The notes below the pieces were generated by a model. It was not told the DNA's origin. It worked only from the letters and a program-made list of their open reading frames with translations, and ran no database searches. Below, piece after piece: positions 1,369 to 17,146 of a DNA stretch of 43,691 nucleotides (position 1 is its first letter; the number at the start of each line of letters is the position of its first letter). The position numbers were made by a program, and so were the translations under genes. Source of the DNA: a virus (taxonomy: Duplodnaviria; Heunggongvirae; Uroviricota; Caudoviricetes); the IMG/VR virus record IMGVR_UViG_2645727945_000025, positions 1-43,691 of that record; one strand, 5' to 3'.

Positions 1369-1444
1369 GCCGATATAGCTCAGTTGGTAGAGCAGCGCAT
1401 TCGTAATGCGAAGGTCGTAGGTTCGACTCCTATTATCGGCACCA
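1369..1444 (+). tRNA. thrW: tRNA-Thr (anticodon CGU)
   Basis: 76-nt sequence GCCGATATAGCTCAGTTGGTAGAGCAGCGCATTCGTAATGCG...GGCACCA folds as a cloverleaf with CGT anticodon and encoded CCA; classic phage integration target. Confidence 0.9.
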
Positions 1445-1462
1445 TTTAAATCAATAAGTTAC
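1399..1462. repeat. attL core: 64-bp direct repeat (tRNA 3' half plus 18 bp), identical to 41138-41201
   Basis: Exact 64-bp identity between the two positions; flanking sequence diverges on both sides. Confidence 0.85.
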
Positions 1463-2619
1463 CTCACATTTAAGTAAATCACGTTCTCCTCTTGTGCCGT
1501 ATTTGTGCCATTGCGACTTATAATTGCATCGATTTTGCTCGCGTGCTCGGTGAGATGCCCGGCTGAAAGGTGGGCGTATCTTTGAACCATTTCGAGAGTT
1601 TCCCATCCTCCCATCTCTTTAAGTGCAAGAAGAGAGACTCCGGACTGAACCAGCCAGCTTGCCCAGGTGTGTCTCAGGTCATGGAATCGGAAGTTGCTAA
1701 TGCCTGCCCGCTTTAACGCTCCCTTCCATGCTTTGTTGCTATCGGTTCTCATCTTCCTTACCGCAGCTGTTTTTGTTCCGTCGCTTCGGTAGGCAGGTTT
1801 GGTGTGGACAAATACCCATCTCTTATGGAGCCCCTGCTGTTTTCTTAATATCTGGCATGCGGTTTCGTTAAGAGGAACTCCGATCGCATTGCCAGCTTTT
1901 GTTTCATCAGGGTGCATCCATGCCATTTTCTTATCCAGATCGACCTGTGACCACTCAAGGTCTGTAACGTTGGAACGGCGAAGGCCTGTCGTGATTGCAA
2001 ACATGACTACAGGGAAGAAATGAGGAGCAATTTCTGCAAACAGGCGCTTCGATTCCTCCTCTGTAAGCCATCTAATGCGTCCATTCTTAACGCGTGGTGT
2101 TGATATTTTGGGCGCCCTGTCAAGCCATCCCCATTCAACAGCCATATTGAGAATAGCGCGAAGTATTGCCAGATGCCGCGTCTTCGTTCCTTTGCTTGCC
2201 AGCTTTGGTTTATACTCCGGCACTGGCTTGCCAAGCCGCAAACACCTGTCCCGGCTCATTTCCCAGTTCAGGCGATGGCGGCGGTTTTCCATCCCGTCTA
2301 CCGCCTCCATTATTTTTTCTGTTGTTATGTCTGAGAGAATGGTTTCTCTGAAGTGCAACATCCAGAACGATATAATGCTCTTGTCATCATCAATGGACTT
2401 CTTATCCGATTTCTCACGAAGCCACCGTATGCAGGCTTCCTTGAATAGCTTTTTCGGTGATTCCCCGAGATTTTTTACTCTCCACGCTTCTGCTTTCAGA
2501 CGATCGTGAAGTTCTTGCGCTTGCCTTTTGTCCGATGTTTCAAGAGAGCGTCTAACTCTTGATCCATCTGGCGCGACGAAATCACAGTGCCACGTGCCAC
2601 CGCGTAGTTTGATTGACAT
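1459..2619 (-). CDS. int: Tyrosine integrase (P22/lambda family), 386 aa
   Basis: C-terminal catalytic motifs (HDLRHT...W, ...MVQRYAHL); stop codon lies inside the att core next to the tRNA. Confidence 0.95.
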   Translation of the reverse strand: MSIKLRGGTWHCDFVAPDGSRVRRSLETSDKRQAQELHDRLKAEAWRVKNLGESPKKLFKEACIRWLREKSDKKSIDDDKSIISFWMLHFRETILSDITTEKIMEAVDGMENRRHRLNWEMSRDRCLRLGKPVPEYKPKLASKGTKTRHLAILRAILNMAVEWGWLDRAPKISTPRVKNGRIRWLTEEESKRLFAEIAPHFFPVVMFAITTGLRRSNVTDLEWSQVDLDKKMAWMHPDETKAGNAIGVPLNETACQILRKQQGLHKRWVFVHTKPAYRSDGTKTAAVRKMRTDSNKAWKGALKRAGISNFRFHDLRHTWASWLVQSGVSLLALKEMGGWETLEMVQRYAHLSAGHLTEHASKIDAIISRNGTNTAQEENVIYLNVR

Positions 2620-13084: not shown

Positions 13085-13128
13085 CGCTCTTTAACAGTCA
13101 TGGTCATCATTCCCGCCGAAATGCGGGA
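13085..13128 (+). promoter_or_regulatory. nutR (boxA CGCTCTTTA plus boxB hairpin)
   Basis: CGCTCTTTA at about 13085-13093; boxB TCCCGCCGAAATGCGGGA at about 13111-13128. Confidence 0.55.
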
Positions 13129-13186
13129 ATACAACGCGCATACGTTGATGCGCATAACTTCTTATTTGTTAAGGAAATACTTACAT

Positions 13187-13465
13187 ATGGAACTTACAAG
13201 TACTCGCAAGAAAGCGAATGCAATTACAAGCAACATCCTGAATCGAATTGCTGTACGTGGTCAGCGAAAGGTTGCTGATGCATTAGGGATCAATGAATCG
13301 CAAATTTCGCGATGGAAAGACAGCTTTATCCCAAAGATGGCCATGCTTCTGGCTGTACTGGAGTGGGGTGTTGAAGACGAGGAGTTGGCGGAACTGGCTA
13401 AGAAAGTAGCCAGAATGCTGACAAAAGAAAAAGCCCCGAAGAACGGCGAATTCTTCGAGGCCTGA
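13187..13465 (+). CDS. cII: CII transcriptional activator (92 aa)
   Basis: Recalled similarity to lambda CII (SQISRWK...MLLAVLEWGV); AAGGAAA RBS before the internal ATG of track ORF 13100-13465. Confidence 0.8.
   Translation: MELTSTRKKANAITSNILNRIAVRGQRKVADALGINESQISRWKDSFIPKMAMLLAVLEWGVEDEELAELAKKVARMLTKEKAPKNGEFFEA
13421..13460 (-). terminator. oop-like antisense terminator overlapping the cII 3' end (approx.)
   Basis: Minus strand: CC(T)CGAAGAA-TTCGCCG-TTCTTCG(G)GG hairpin followed by CTTTTTCTTTTG; CATAAT -10-like element about 65 nt upstream. Confidence 0.4.
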
Positions 13466-13499
13466 TGTAGAAAGACTGGATCAATCCACAGGAGTAATT

Positions 13500-14144
13500 A
13501 TGACATACGAAAATGACAAATTCCAGGTTCTGAAGAGCATGAAGGTGCCAGATGATTTTAAATCAAATGGCTTTGTTTATGTGCTTTCGAATGAGTGCAT
13601 GCCAGGAATTTATAAGATTGGGATGACTAAGCATTCACCAGAAGTTAGGGCTAAAGAAATTTCAGCCTCTACTGGCGTTCCTAAGCCATTTAAGGTGATA
13701 GCAGCCTTTCATTCAAATAATCCCGCATCAGATGAAAAACTCATTCATAAAGCCTTTGCAAAAGAGAGGCTTAGTGATAATCGAGAGTTTTTCAAGCTTG
13801 AAGATAATGATCTTTCTGAATCTCTAAATGAAATAAGGGCGCTGGTTGGCCCTGAAAGAAATGGCGAGACGGCAGAATACGCAATTTACGACTCATTCAT
13901 TTCTTTTCGCCATGAAAATGAGCTTGATCTTAATGAGGAGCTTATAGAGCAAGGTCTGGGTAGTGTAGTTGGTCATCTTCCTGCGGTGAAAAATTTCCTT
14001 ATTCGCGCCGGAATTGCTTACGCGAAGCAACTGATAAGCAAATATAACTCATCGATAGTTATTAATACAGATGGCAGTGTGGTGATGGTTAAGTCTCTTG
14101 AAGCCCAATGCTTTGATGCGGAGGTTGGAAATGAGCCTGGCTGA
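13500..14144 (+). CDS. T5orf172/GIY-YIG-superfamily domain protein (214 aa), moron between cII and O
   Basis: N-terminal motif GFVYVLSN...GIYKIGMT...R...F.V...E.LIHKAF...REFF; strong AGGAG RBS; AT-rich. Confidence 0.6.
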   Translation: MTYENDKFQVLKSMKVPDDFKSNGFVYVLSNECMPGIYKIGMTKHSPEVRAKEISASTGVPKPFKVIAAFHSNNPASDEKLIHKAFAKERLSDNREFFKLEDNDLSESLNEIRALVGPERNGETAEYAIYDSFISFRHENELDLNEELIEQGLGSVVGHLPAVKNFLIRAGIAYAKQLISKYNSSIVINTDGSVVMVKSLEAQCFDAEVGNEPG

Positions 14145-14973
14145 AGTATTTTACCTGCCGAAGAGTGAACCTGTTGAACAGGAGCGAAGAGTGGCTGATA
14201 TCGATGATGGTTACACCAGATTCGCTAACGAGCTGCTGGAAGCTATCGCAAGTGCCGATTTAACCGCTCGCCAGTTGAAAGTTATGCTGGCCTACGTCCG
14301 GAAAACATATGGATTCAATAAGAAAACAGATCGAATAGCCGATGAGCAAATTGCTCAGTTAACAGGACTGTCAAGGCAGAATGTTAACAAGGCTAAAAAA
14401 GAACTGATTTCAATGAATTGCCTGTTTATGGATGGAAATCAAATCGGTGTAAACAGTGAGGTATCTGCGTGGCAATTCAGCAAGTGTCTCCAAGTTAGCA
14501 ACTTTGTCTCGAAGTTAGAGACAAAAAATGTCTCCAAATTAGAGACACTCAATGTCTCGAAGTTAGAGACACACAAAAGACATTCTTTAAAGACAAAAGA
14601 AAATATTAATAACCCCCCTATATCCCCCAAAAAAGTTTCTCAGAAGTTCGACCCGCTAGAAACAGAGTTGCCTGATTGGTTATCAGCAGAAACATGGTTG
14701 TCGTGGGTTACCTATCGCAAGGAGATAGGTAAGTCGATCAAGTCTAAGCAAAGTGTCACTCAGGCTATCAACGTTCTAAGCAGAAGTCTGGAGAAGGGAT
14801 ATACACCTGAAGAAATTATAAACCAGAGCATCGCCAGTGGTTGGCAGGGGATTTTTGAGCCCAAGACTTCAAAGGGGAAATCTCAACCGAGGCCGCAGCA
14901 TCGAGCTATGCAGGAAAACTTTGCCACCAAAGATTACGGACAAACTGAAATGCCTTCATGGGCGCAGGAGTGA
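14131..14973 (+). CDS. O: Replication initiator O (lambda O-like N-terminus)
   Basis: N-terminal similarity to lambda O (DDGY.R..N.LLEA...ADLT.RQ.KV.LA..RKTYG.NK..DRI); ori iterons inside the gene; start at Met12 (alternative 14098). Confidence 0.8.
   Translation: MSLAEVFYLPKSEPVEQERRVADIDDGYTRFANELLEAIASADLTARQLKVMLAYVRKTYGFNKKTDRIADEQIAQLTGLSRQNVNKAKKELISMNCLFMDGNQIGVNSEVSAWQFSKCLQVSNFVSKLETKNVSKLETLNVSKLETHKRHSLKTKENINNPPISPKKVSQKFDPLETELPDWLSAETWLSWVTYRKEIGKSIKSKQSVTQAINVLSRSLEKGYTPEEIINQSIASGWQGIFEPKTSKGKSQPRPQHRAMQENFATKDYGQTEMPSWAQE
14484..14615. repeat. Origin of replication: four ~19-bp iterons (TGTCTC-N7-GAGACA) plus AT-rich tract
   Basis: Tandem copies at about 14484-14502, 14504-14523, 14528-14548, 14550-14572, then an A/T-rich stretch. 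Confidence 0.65.
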
Positions 14974-14975
14974 AC

Positions 14976-15821
14976 ATGACGCTGGATGAAAAGATCTTCC
15001 AACTGGAGAAAAAACTTGCAGAATTGAGTTCTCCGCCAATTGCTATCGAGCATACAGCTGTAGAAATTGGCACTGGCATCTGTGAAAAACATGGTGAGTT
15101 TGAGCAGCGTAACCGTTACTCGACTGGGCCAATTAAGTTTGCCTCAAGACCTAGCGAATGCCCGGAATGCATGAGAGATGAGCTTATTCGGCTACAGGCA
15201 GAGAAGATTAAAATCGACGAGGAATCACGTAAGCGCAATGTCGAGTTTCTGTTGAATAATCTTGATATTCCTGAACGATTCAAGGGTTGCACACTACAGA
15301 ACTACGAGCCAGTCAACGACGATGCAAAGAGAGTGCTCAGGGTGTGTCAGGCATACGCCAGCAAATGGCCTGAGAGGTTACAGAAAGGCGGTGGGCTGGT
15401 TATGTGTGGAAAGCCTGGTACTGGAAAGAATCATCTTGCACTGGCTATCGCCTGGCACGCAATTACGGAACATCAAAGCTCAGCTATTTTCACAACGGCG
15501 CTGAAAATTGCCAGAGAATATAAATCAACATGGTCGAAAAACTCCACCCGCACTGAGGATGAAGTGATCCGACAGTTCACTAAACCTGACCTGCTAATTA
15601 TCGATGAGGTTGGTGTGCAGTTTGGAAGCGAGGCGGAAAAGATGATCATGTTCGAAATCATCAACACCCGCTACGAGCGTATGAAGCCAACAATCCTGAT
15701 TAGCAACCAGAGCAAAGATGAACTGTCTGCATTCATTGGTGAGCGTGTTATTGACAGGATGAATGATGGCGGCGGATGCACCCTTGCGTTTACATGGGAT
15801 AGTTACAGGAGCAGATCGTGA
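14976..15821 (+). CDS. DnaC-like helicase loader (IstB-type AAA+ ATPase)
   Basis: Walker A GKPGTGKNHLA and Walker B LLIIDEVG; GGAG RBS; follows O. Confidence 0.8.
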   Translation: MTLDEKIFQLEKKLAELSSPPIAIEHTAVEIGTGICEKHGEFEQRNRYSTGPIKFASRPSECPECMRDELIRLQAEKIKIDEESRKRNVEFLLNNLDIPERFKGCTLQNYEPVNDDAKRVLRVCQAYASKWPERLQKGGGLVMCGKPGTGKNHLALAIAWHAITEHQSSAIFTTALKIAREYKSTWSKNSTRTEDEVIRQFTKPDLLIIDEVGVQFGSEAEKMIMFEIINTRYERMKPTILISNQSKDELSAFIGERVIDRMNDGGGCTLAFTWDSYRSRS

Positions 15822-16181: not shown

Positions 16182-16622
16182 ATGAAAAAACTAACCTTTG
16201 AAATTCGATCTCCAGCACATCAGCAAAACGCTATTCACGCAGTACAGCAAATTCTTCCAGACCCAACCAAACCAATCGTAGTAACCATTCAGGAACGCAA
16301 CCGCAGCTTAGACCAAAACCGAAAGCTTTGGGCTTGCCTTGGTGACGTCTCTCGTCAGGTTGAATGGCATGGTCGCTGGCTGGATGCAGAAAGTTGGAAG
16401 TGTGTGTTTACCGCAGCATTAAAGCAGCAGGACGTTGTTCCTAACCTTGCCGGGAATGGCTTTGTGGTAATAGGCCAGTCAACCAGCAGGATGCGTGTAA
16501 GCGAATTTGCGGAGCTATTAGAGCTTATACAGGCATTCGGTACAGAGCGTGGCGTTAAGTGGTCAGACGAAGCGCGACTGGCTCTCGAATGGAAAGCGCG
16601 ATGGGGAGATCGGGCAGCATGA
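16182..16622 (+). CDS. ninB: NinB recombination protein
   Basis: Recalled near-identity to lambda NinB (MKKLTFEIRSPAHQQNAIHAVQQILPDP...). Confidence 0.85.
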   Translation: MKKLTFEIRSPAHQQNAIHAVQQILPDPTKPIVVTIQERNRSLDQNRKLWACLGDVSRQVEWHGRWLDAESWKCVFTAALKQQDVVPNLAGNGFVVIGQSTSRMRVSEFAELLELIQAFGTERGVKWSDEARLALEWKARWGDRAA

Positions 16623-17146
16623 CTATCAAATCAAATACGCCAGCACACGACAAGGACTGCTGGCAAACGCCGCTTTGGCTTTTTGATGCACTGGATATTG
16701 AGTTTGGATTCTGGCTGGATTCGGCAGCGAGCGACAAAAATGCTCTGTGTGCTCACTGGCTAACTGAGGCCGACGACGCGCTCAATTCTGAGTGGGTAAG
16801 CCACGGTGCAATCTGGAATAACCCACCGTACAGCAATATCAGGCCGTGGGTGGAAAAAGCCGCTGAGCAGTGCATACAACAGCGACAGACGGTAGTTATG
16901 CTTGTGCCAGAGGATATGTCAGTCGGATGGTTCAGCAAGGCTCTGGAGAGTGTCGACGAAGTTCGCATTATCACTGATGGACGGATTAATTTTATCGAAC
17001 CATCGACAGGGTTGGAGAAGAAGGGAAACAGCAAAGGCTCCATGCTGCTGATTTGGCGACCGTTCATCAGTCCTCGACGGATGTTTACTACCGTATCCAA
17101 AGCGGCATTGATGGCGATCGGGCAGGGCGTCAGGAGGGCGGCATGA
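16619..17146 (+). CDS. DNA N6-adenine methyltransferase (phage Dam-like, orphan)
   Basis: NPPY catalytic motif (IWNNPPYS); ATGA overlap with ninB; no adjacent restriction gene. Confidence 0.8.

Follow-up and report, generated by a model that had tools for sequence, protein, structure and literature searches.

A T5orf172-type GIY-YIG nuclease with a lineage-specific C-terminal domain on an optional cassette between cII and O in a P22-like Escherichia coli prophage

Results

The region between cII and O

The window, by which we mean the whole 43,691-nucleotide stretch of DNA analysed, is a P22-like E. coli prophage that adjoins tRNA-Thr and carries its integrase gene at 1459-2619. An open reading frame (ORF) on the + strand at 13500-14144 encodes a 214-residue T5orf172/GIY-YIG nuclease with a lineage-specific C-terminal domain. 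Its left neighbour is cII (13100-13465, + strand), identified by matches to Phage_CII (E = 5.1e-42) and to phrog_191, a family of CII-like activators; the start codon of cII is uncertain, the Pfam match beginning at residue 30 of a 121-residue ORF. On the right lies the gene for the replication initiator O (14131-14973, + strand; Phage_rep_O, E = 3.9e-36), followed by the second gene of the replication module, which encodes a DnaC/IstB-like helicase loader (14958-15821, + strand; IstB_IS21, E = 1.8e-18; Bac_DnaA, E = 1e-8). Three ori-type iterons of 24 bp each were located by Tandem Repeats Finder within O (14505-14576), about 360 nt 3' of the nuclease gene. The two flanking matches bear out the placement between cII and O given by the first-pass annotation.

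The translation signals are likewise as first described. The ORF runs from an ATG at 13500 to a stop codon at 14142-14144, and a strong ribosome-binding site (RBS), AGGAG at 13490-13494, lies 5 nt 5' of the ATG. The overlap with the start of O amounts to 14 nt: the ATG of O is at 14131 and its RBS, GGAGG at 14120-14124 on the + strand, lies within the 3' end of the nuclease ORF, in agreement with the RefSeq annotation of O in identical loci (L003, L004).

The gene had also been called AT-rich. It is AT-richer than its surroundings, with a GC content of 0.406 against 0.472 for the whole window and a GC3 of 0.353 against 0.47-0.51 in the neighbouring genes, but only modestly so (about the 5th percentile of 645-bp windows). 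A scan detected neither a + strand promoter-like site upstream of the ORF nor a + strand terminator downstream. The earlier label of moron is thus apt only in a loose sense: the gene is accessory and of atypical composition, but it uses the RBS of O inside the pR operon. A moron in the strict sense, an autonomous transcription unit, was rejected, as the gene comes without its own promoter or terminator and its ORF overlaps O. Databases label the gene merely as a "GIY-YIG nuclease family protein" or as "hypothetical".

Boundaries of the cassette

Insertion between cII and O can be seen directly by comparison with relatives that lack the gene. Phage N7 has matching cII and O at 98% identity with the insert absent, while the BASEL phage Bas106 has the same arrangement as the window together with the gene, annotated as a "hypothetical protein". 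With N7 and 26 E. coli prophages as insert-less references, the flanks are 98-99% identical, and the comparison at this junction marks the gene as accessory rather than core, in keeping with what the first-pass annotation had supposed. Alignment with N7 and two empty E. coli sites delimits a presence/absence cassette of 670 bp at 13506-14175.

The RBS and the sequence ATGACA with which gene O opens in N7 are those that open the nuclease ORF in the window. The nuclease ORF shares its first two codons with O; the rest of this ORF, together with a substitute for the first 15 codons of O, makes up the cassette. These 15 codons (MSLAEVFYLPKSEPV) are cassette-derived, and the remainder of O is 98-99% identical to that of the insert-less phages N7 and mEpX1. 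The cassette therefore takes over the RBS and ATG of O and overwrites its first 15 codons, while translation of O is kept up by the new GGAGG and ATG that it supplies.

The O allele of the window occurs 45 times in complete E. coli genomes, with the cassette in 19 and without it in 26. The altered 5' end of O accompanies the nuclease gene in all 19 occupied genomes and in none of the 26 empty ones: occupied genomes match from the ATG of O, whereas empty ones match only from query position 46 (window position 14176) and have a lambda-like O 5' end. A search of the occupied and empty alleles for a co-conversion gradient in O found a single linked SNP (14186, 11 nt from the junction) and no extended tract. 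The cassette was absent from other E. coli O alleles with a lambda-like 5' end, all 19 copies lying on the one allele, and it is combined with at least four different cI/cro/cII sets.

Left of the cassette lies a conserved junction block, ACTGGATCAATCCACAGGAGTAATT (13475-13499 in the alignments), which contains the AGGAG RBS and the likely oop 5' region. This block of 25-31 nt, ACTGGATCAATCCACAGGAGTnATT(ATGACA), is common to different cII alleles and is found directly 5' of O in insert-less phages. Of 78 IMG/VR loci, 47 have it upstream of the nuclease gene with at most two mismatches, as do Klebsiella, Pantoea and Enterobacter loci. The cassette is thus optional, sharply bounded and situated at the boundary between the immunity and replication modules.

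The expectation that lambdoid phages normally pass straight from cII to O holds for many of them, at least 1342 of 5426 E. coli genomes having a lambda-like empty cII/O junction, with up to four unoccupied junctions in one genome; the slot, however, also holds other small cassettes (see below).

The oop promoter and terminator

The first-pass annotation had the ORF overlapping an oop-like terminator. The hairpin found by a terminator scan and by reading the minus-strand sequence, a 14-bp stem followed by a T-run, instead lies on the minus strand at 13463-13431, in the 3'-terminal part of cII, 37 nt before the ORF begins. What the ORF does overlap is the oop promoter (pO; 13497-13525, minus strand), within which the left edge of the cassette falls. 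At the empty site, used as a control, the promoter scan reads TTGAGT-17-CATAAT with an extended -10 TG, the -10 element lying over the ATG of O. The window keeps CATAAT and the TG (complement of 13497-13502), while TTGAGT is replaced by the cassette sequence TGGAAT (complement of 13520-13525; 3 of 6 matches). The scan that finds a promoter at the empty site did not call one in the window. By altering both the oop antisense promoter and the N-terminus of O, the cassette may shift the balance between lysis and lysogeny.

The nuclease domain

A Pfam search supported the earlier reading of the N-terminal motif as T5orf172/MUG113. Residues 24-112 (13569-13835, + strand) match PF10544 (T5orf172; E = 2.3e-15, 57.4 bits against a cut-off of 20) and residues 38-111 match PF13455 (MUG113; E = 4.3e-16, 59.7 bits against 22.3), both above the gathering thresholds. 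Searches of NCBIfam and of PDB sequences gave no match to the protein. The ORF product belongs to the T5orf172/MUG113 families of the GIY-YIG clan. Residues G24, Y27, Y38-K39-x-G41, R50, E79, H83 and R95-E96-F97-F98 are each conserved in at least 97% of 131 homologues, and GFVY27, Y38KIG, R50, H83 and E96 are invariant in a 37-sequence alignment, so that the GIY-YIG catalytic constellation is present. An AF2 model built from the 37-sequence alignment (pLDDT 87, pTM 0.71) has the GIY-YIG alpha/beta fold, and fold comparison placed Slx1 structure-specific endonucleases as its closest structural matches. Given this conservation of catalytic-type residues, the protein is apparently a catalytically intact GIY-YIG enzyme; activity is to be expected and DNA cleavage is predicted.

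The C-terminal domain

The first-pass annotation left about 90 residues of C-terminal sequence unassigned, and the stretch without a Pfam, NCBIfam or PDB-sequence match indeed comes to about 100 residues (residues 113-214; 13836-14141, + strand). The domain is acidic (pI 4.66, against 5.2 for the whole protein) and is predicted to be mixed alpha/beta with a long central helix. It had no match in Pfam (E up to 10) or NCBIfam, nor among PDB sequences with either a single sequence or a profile as query, and Foldseek found no fold match in BFVD (best E = 0.2). A profile of the domain run against 1.84 billion representatives retrieved only 14 proteins, all of the same two-domain architecture or fragments of it. 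Aligned by hhalign with O and with the DnaC-like loader, the profile gave probabilities below 1%; an Odn-like borrowed initiator domain was rejected, the domain being known only from this architecture and unlike O or the loader. Judged by these searches, the C-terminal domain is lineage-specific and previously undescribed, with no known fold or family. The protein contains no recognisable DNA-binding module of the kind that targets homing enzymes. Both domains are under purifying selection (dN/dS about 0.07-0.2, with dS saturated).

Distribution of the family and its position in the replication module

Close full-length homologues are rare in isolated phages, Bas106 being the only carrier among 50,697 records, and a search of plasmids found none. 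The gene is present in 19 of 5426 complete E. coli genomes. The subfamily to which it belongs comprises proteins of about 211-229 residues with 55-99% identity and includes members from Klebsiella, Pectobacterium, Cronobacter and Pantoea. Proteins of the same architecture, at about 34% identity, form a sister subfamily that is far larger (at least 179 clusters) and extends across the Enterobacterales. Decayed copies are found occasionally, one of them split (L069) and another truncated (L044). An apparent nuclease-O fusion (P0034) and two further entries (P0055, P0056) were set aside as artefacts of frameshifts or fragments, or as decayed copies, and were not taken for a distinct architecture.

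In all of 88 loci, of which 11 were inspected by hand and 77 were IMG/VR loci having downstream sequence (56 distinct nuclease sequences), the family gene lies immediately upstream of a replication initiator gene, at a distance of -74 to +12 nt. The initiators fall into three unrelated families, namely O-like, phrog_17247/16167 and phrog_8540/1032, and are followed by a P-like or DnaC/IstB-like loader or, in Salmonella phage S107, by a primase-helicase. The left neighbour is cII, YdaT or something else. The position at the head of the replication module is thus invariant for the family as a whole and is not incidental to the window. Our literature search on GIY-YIG genes at lambdoid cII and on PDC-S57 returned no paper on this gene.

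C-terminal tails and initiator fusions in the sister subfamily

Among 103 sister-clade representatives, 94 end in Phe, typically in [DE]x[ILV]PF or PVEF after a GIYGP motif; examples are ...SDDSDIPF, ...PDFDDAPF and ...VDEPLPF. The C-terminal docking motif of SSB is DDDIPF (PMC5872125). The close resemblance of the sister-clade tails to this motif hints at protein docking in the replication and repair network. A Phe-type tail was found in none of 28 members of the window's subfamily, and the clue is not directly applicable to the window protein, whose 3' end overlaps O.

The nuclease domain matches the profile phrog_8130 at positions 181-257, and the N-termini of initiators of the phrog_17247 type, the family that neighbours the sister clade, match the same profile at positions 11-102. 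This double match indicates that fusions of an initiator domain to T5orf172, Odn-like in architecture, exist.

Discussion

Relation to known systems

Among the closest counterparts of the window gene are the free-standing T5orf172 homing endonuclease genes (HEGs) of ICP1-, T5- and VpaJT-like phages (Barth, Dunham & Seed 2023, PMC10448857), with which it shares the Pfam nuclease domain, a phage-encoded setting, a place beside an essential replication gene and at an exchange boundary, and presence/absence polymorphism. It differs from them in three respects. Those HEGs pair the nuclease with recognisable DNA-binding modules, namely CapR, DUF723 or DUF4397 zinc fingers or RepA_N, and are often multi-copy in lytic phages (PMC10448857). 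The window protein pairs it with an acidic domain; the window gene is single-copy in temperate lambdoid prophages; and, unlike the ICP1- and T5-type genes, the window's family keeps one fixed position across unrelated initiators.

ICP1 Odn (Gp88) is also a T5orf172 nuclease tied to a replication initiator or origin, but it carries the RepA_N domain of the satellite initiator in the same polypeptide (PMC8263062), whereas the window nuclease is only encoded beside an initiator. Membership of the Odn type was rejected, the second domain having no similarity to O, the loader or any initiator. The defence protein SNIPE/PD-Lambda-1 and the PADLOC candidate PDC-S57 have a homologous nuclease domain. 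SNIPE, however, is a protein of about 490 residues with a transmembrane anchor and DUF4041 that acts in uninfected hosts (bioRxiv 10.1101/2025.11.03.685801), while the window protein has 214 residues, is cytoplasmic by composition, lies in the pR operon and differs from both SNIPE and PDC-S57 in its C-terminal half. Membership of PD-Lambda-1/SNIPE was rejected because only profile positions 354-450 of 491-496 match, and that of PDC-S57 because only positions 3-93 of 212 do (the profiles having 212-245 positions), a result that was the same for seven relatives from both subfamilies. Slx1/HIGLE structure-specific GIY-YIG endonucleases (PDB 6seh, 7wme, 7cq2) are likewise among the closest known systems; enzymes of the Slx1 type join the GIY-YIG domain to a C-terminal RING or zinc finger and are activated by an Slx4-like partner. 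Membership of the Slx1 type was rejected, since the protein has no Cys/His cluster (two Cys in total) and its C-terminal domain no RING match.

Phage T4 encodes the free-standing GIY-YIG homing endonucleases Seg and Mob; Seg proteins are basic and bind DNA through C-terminal regions, and marker exclusion and co-conversion have been demonstrated for them. The window gene resembles the Seg and Mob genes in its GIY-YIG core, in an intergenic insertion that spares expression of the neighbour, in an altered would-be target in the carrier and in being AT-rich. It differs from Seg, which is basic and associated with co-conversion: the window cassette has no co-conversion tract, and cleavage by its product is a prediction only. 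The nuclease family itself was already known; what is new in this free-standing phage T5orf172 protein is the combination of a novel domain with a temperate lambdoid setting and a strict link to a replication initiator.

Proposed role of the nuclease

We tentatively favour a homing-like or competitive nuclease that is expressed together with the replication genes. In the proposed mechanism, a T5orf172-type GIY-YIG endonuclease fused to a lineage-specific acidic domain, carried on an optional 670-bp cassette, would be made from the pR transcript just ahead of O as lytic growth starts, and would be off in the repressed prophage. Expression from pR ahead of O is inferred from the way the cassette uses the RBS and ATG of O and restores O translation. 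The enzyme would then behave like a free-standing homing or competition endonuclease, cutting co-resident or co-infecting lambdoid genomes at or near the unoccupied cII/O junction, while its own genome would be immune, the cassette having split this junction and replaced part of it. Repair by recombination, with the occupied allele as template, may proceed on the left through the conserved 25-31-nt block and on the right through O, with the outcome that the cassette is copied in or the rival replicon is removed.

The homing-like reading comes first in our ranking because of family precedent, presence/absence polymorphism, a composition that is foreign, a would-be target that is disrupted and a location at a module boundary. 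As for precedent, the putative homing endonucleases of ICP1- and T5-like phages are mainly encoded by T5orf172 genes, which cluster by essential genes and at the boundaries of genetic exchange (PMC10448857). As in homing, presence and absence are sporadic at a single locus, with near-identical flanks and sharp junctions. Further support comes from the preserved expression of the essential neighbour O, from the occasional decayed copies, which are expected of a dispensable element, and from the multiple empty junctions in some E. coli genomes (up to four), which are potential targets.

The reading is nevertheless held loosely. Characterised GIY-YIG and T5orf172 homing enzymes have zinc-finger or helix-turn-helix targeting domains (PMC10448857), whereas the window protein lacks a DNA-targeting domain and has an acidic C-terminal domain that matches no fold. 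Occupancy is low, with 19 occupied E. coli genomes set against at least 1342 that have lambda-like empty junctions, and is confined to a single O allele there; selection on both domains is strongly purifying, and synteny over non-homologous flanks fits a replisome-linked nuclease about as well. The absence of a co-conversion gradient in O beyond one SNP weakens the reading further, as do the SSB-like tails of the sister clade, which suggest protein docking and are not a homing-enzyme trait.

Alternative explanations

Several of these observations would suit a replication or recombination accessory nuclease, co-translated with the initiator and acting on replication or recombination intermediates or on host forks, for example by nicking or cutting in favour of the phage replicon or by aiding the theta to rolling-circle transition. 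The C-terminal domain would bind the replisome, the initiator or proteins of the SSB interactome and not a DNA sequence. We regard this role as a close rival of the homing-like reading, if a somewhat less likely one. It would account for the gene's place directly 5' of an initiator, with a helicase loader next in line, in all 88 loci and whatever the initiator and partner types, and is consistent with purifying selection on both domains, with the SSB-Ct-like tails (DDDIPF type) in 94 of 103 sister-clade members, with Slx1 structure-specific endonucleases as best structural matches and with an acidic C-terminal domain that argues for protein rather than DNA binding. Yet the gene is dispensable: 26 genomes, as well as the viable phages N7 and mEpX1, have the O allele of the window but lack the gene. 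The SSB-like tail is missing from the window's own subfamily (0 of 28). We know of no lambdoid replication step that needs such a nuclease, which also counts against this role. A related proposal, about which we are doubtful, is that the window gene is a branch of an unrecognised, Enterobacterales-wide family of replication-module leader nucleases: a T5orf172 core with a private second domain, always directly 5' of the initiator and tied to the replisome, in which the sister clade would dock on host SSB-binding proteins through a tail mimicking the SSB C-terminus (...DDSDIPF, ...DEPLPF, ...PVEF) and the window's clade, its tail lost, would have come to be coupled to O in translation. A nuclease of this kind could cleave host or rival forks or origins and so hand the replication machinery to the phage.

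The remaining alternatives rank lower. One is a conflict nuclease that would attack other mobile elements or host defences in lytic growth, a trans-acting counterpart of the origin-directed nucleases with PICI- or P4-like satellites, plasmids, prophages or host DNA as candidate targets. Its model is ICP1 Odn, in which a T5orf172 nuclease has been redirected against the origin of a satellite (PMC8263062), a kind of change of target that has arisen repeatedly (PMC10448857); the phrog_8130 fusions of an origin-binding domain to T5orf172, which involve the initiator family that neighbours the sister clade, and the likely early expression with the replication genes point the same way. We nonetheless regard it as improbable, as the C-terminal domain is unlike O, the loader or any other protein family and so gives no sign of borrowed specificity, no satellite or defence target emerged from the analysis, and the strict positional conservation would be left unexplained. 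More improbable still is a prophage-encoded anti-phage defence or superinfection-exclusion nuclease that protects the lysogen in the manner of PD-Lambda-1/SNIPE or PDC-S57. PADLOC does match PDC-S57 (E = 6.4e-29) and PD-Lambda-1 (E = 8.6e-12), the gene resides in a prophage, and SNIPE cuts incoming phage DNA with a homologous GIY-YIG domain (bioRxiv 10.1101/2025.11.03.685801), but only the nuclease domain is matched (positions 3-93 of 212 in the PDC-S57 profile, 354-450 of about 495 in that of PD-Lambda-1) and the protein has neither a transmembrane segment nor DUF4041. Lacking its own promoter and lying in the repressor-controlled pR operon behind cro and cII, the gene should be off in a lysogen; moreover, the full-length family was absent from plasmids, and its 88 loci all lie in a lambdoid replication module, not in a defence island. 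Finally, a domesticated, non-cleaving DNA-binding regulator like PLE CapR, which might modulate expression of oop/cII or of O, seems very improbable: CapR derives from a T5orf172 HEG (bioRxiv 10.1101/2020.11.28.402263; PMC10448857) and the cassette does change the -35 element of the oop promoter, but conservation of at least 97% at catalytic-type residues over 131 sequences, an acidic protein (pI 5.2) and no detectable DNA-binding domain all speak against it.

Implications for lambdoid phages

If the homing-like reading is right, the cassette would place a T5orf172 selfish nuclease at the classic immunity/replication mosaic boundary of temperate lambdoid phages. It would then offer a mechanism that drives the shuffling of modules in the best-studied model for mosaic phage genomes, and a means of studying how the prophages of a polylysogen compete. 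A replisome-linked nuclease would instead represent an accessory step in lambdoid replication or host takeover, one that decades of work on lambda would have overlooked, the gene being absent from lambda itself. Both possibilities are open to direct test, as Bas106 is an isolated phage with the cassette and its close relatives N7 and mEpX1 are without it.

Other occupants of the cII/O slot are hkaW in HK620 (HK022 gp53-like) and DUF2740 proteins in many prophages. The hkaW and DUF2740 products, of about 48 residues and without a nuclease domain, differ from the window protein, but their cassettes are built in a similar way: they start at the usual ATG of O, 34 nt after the cII stop codon, and overlap a new O start.

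Organisation of the cII/O junction

Judged from sequence comparison, the cII/O junction is a general slot for cassettes, of which the nuclease cassette is one. Two kinds of unrelated small gene, hkaW (HK022 gp53-like) and DUF2740, begin at the same ATG, 34 nt past the cII stop codon, and overlap the re-created start of O. The former is exemplified by hkaW of HK620 (L015, 1101-1247), while DUF2740 genes are found in the E. coli genome matches H110-H122. In S107, a small slot ORF, orf63 (L016, 2856-3002), stands ahead of the T5orf172 gene.

The left junction of the cassette falls between the -10 and -35 elements of the oop antisense promoter (window 13497-13525, minus strand). Comparison with the empty-site locus L013 (1450-1478) reveals that the -35 hexamer, TTGAGT at empty sites, is TGGAAT in the window, while the extended -10 element (TGtCATAAT) is retained. 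Levels of oop RNA may differ between phages with and without the cassette, in which case control of cII might differ too.

Three 24-bp iterons with the consensus TGTCTCGAAGTTAGAGACACACAA lie inside O (window 14505-14576), where they encode the repeated peptide NVSKLET. These iterons are the presumed ori, and the nuclease gene ends approximately 360 nt upstream of them. In one prophage carrying the cassette (L003, E. coli C 236-04A), O is a pseudogene (L003, 4157-5067), frameshifted and with an internal stop codon; an insertion of approximately 68 nt is located beside the iteron region, at a point corresponding to about window position 14491, and the nuclease gene is intact.

Relatives of the nuclease

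The sister subfamily of nucleases includes proteins P0031, P0035, P0039, P0040, P0054, and P0095-P0170, and is represented at loci L011, L018, L019, and L049-L099. Comparison of protein ends revealed a C-terminal phenylalanine in 94 of 103 sister-clade nucleases, the usual ending being [DE]x[ILV]PF or PVEF downstream of a GIYGP motif. Such tails, for example SDDSDIPF, PDFDDAPF, and VDEPLPF, strongly resemble in sequence the C-terminal docking tip of SSB, DDDIPF. None of the 28 members of the window's own subfamily has a Phe-terminal tail of this kind.

Two PHROG profiles hint at further architectures. The window nuclease domain matches positions 181-257 of phrog_8130 (434 positions), and positions 11-102 of the same profile are matched by the N-termini of phrog_17247-type initiators from L011 and L019. 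That both matches fall on a single profile implies the existence of phage proteins in which an initiator DNA-binding domain would be fused to T5orf172, an architecture like that of the ICP1 origin-directed nuclease, Odn. The top PHROG match of the window protein is phrog_8430 (E = 4.8e-68), residues 1-172 aligning to positions 275-439 of 439. Since the alignment starts at position 275, some relatives likely possess around 270 additional N-terminal positions; no long homologue with this extra part was present among the protein-search results.

The IMG/VR and metagenome data also contain, at low frequency, nuclease genes that are split, truncated, or fused through a frameshift (L069, 2962-3651; L044, 3001-3483; proteins P0034, P0055, and P0056); these are either decayed genes or assembly errors.

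Other features of the prophage

The nin region contains a 195-aa ORF (window 16559-17146) at the position annotated as a phage N-6-adenine methyltransferase in related loci. The methyltransferase is not always found together with the nuclease cassette, being present in L003 and absent from L004. Window positions 1369-2619 hold tRNA-Thr(CGT), which the prophage adjoins, and the adjacent integrase ORF.
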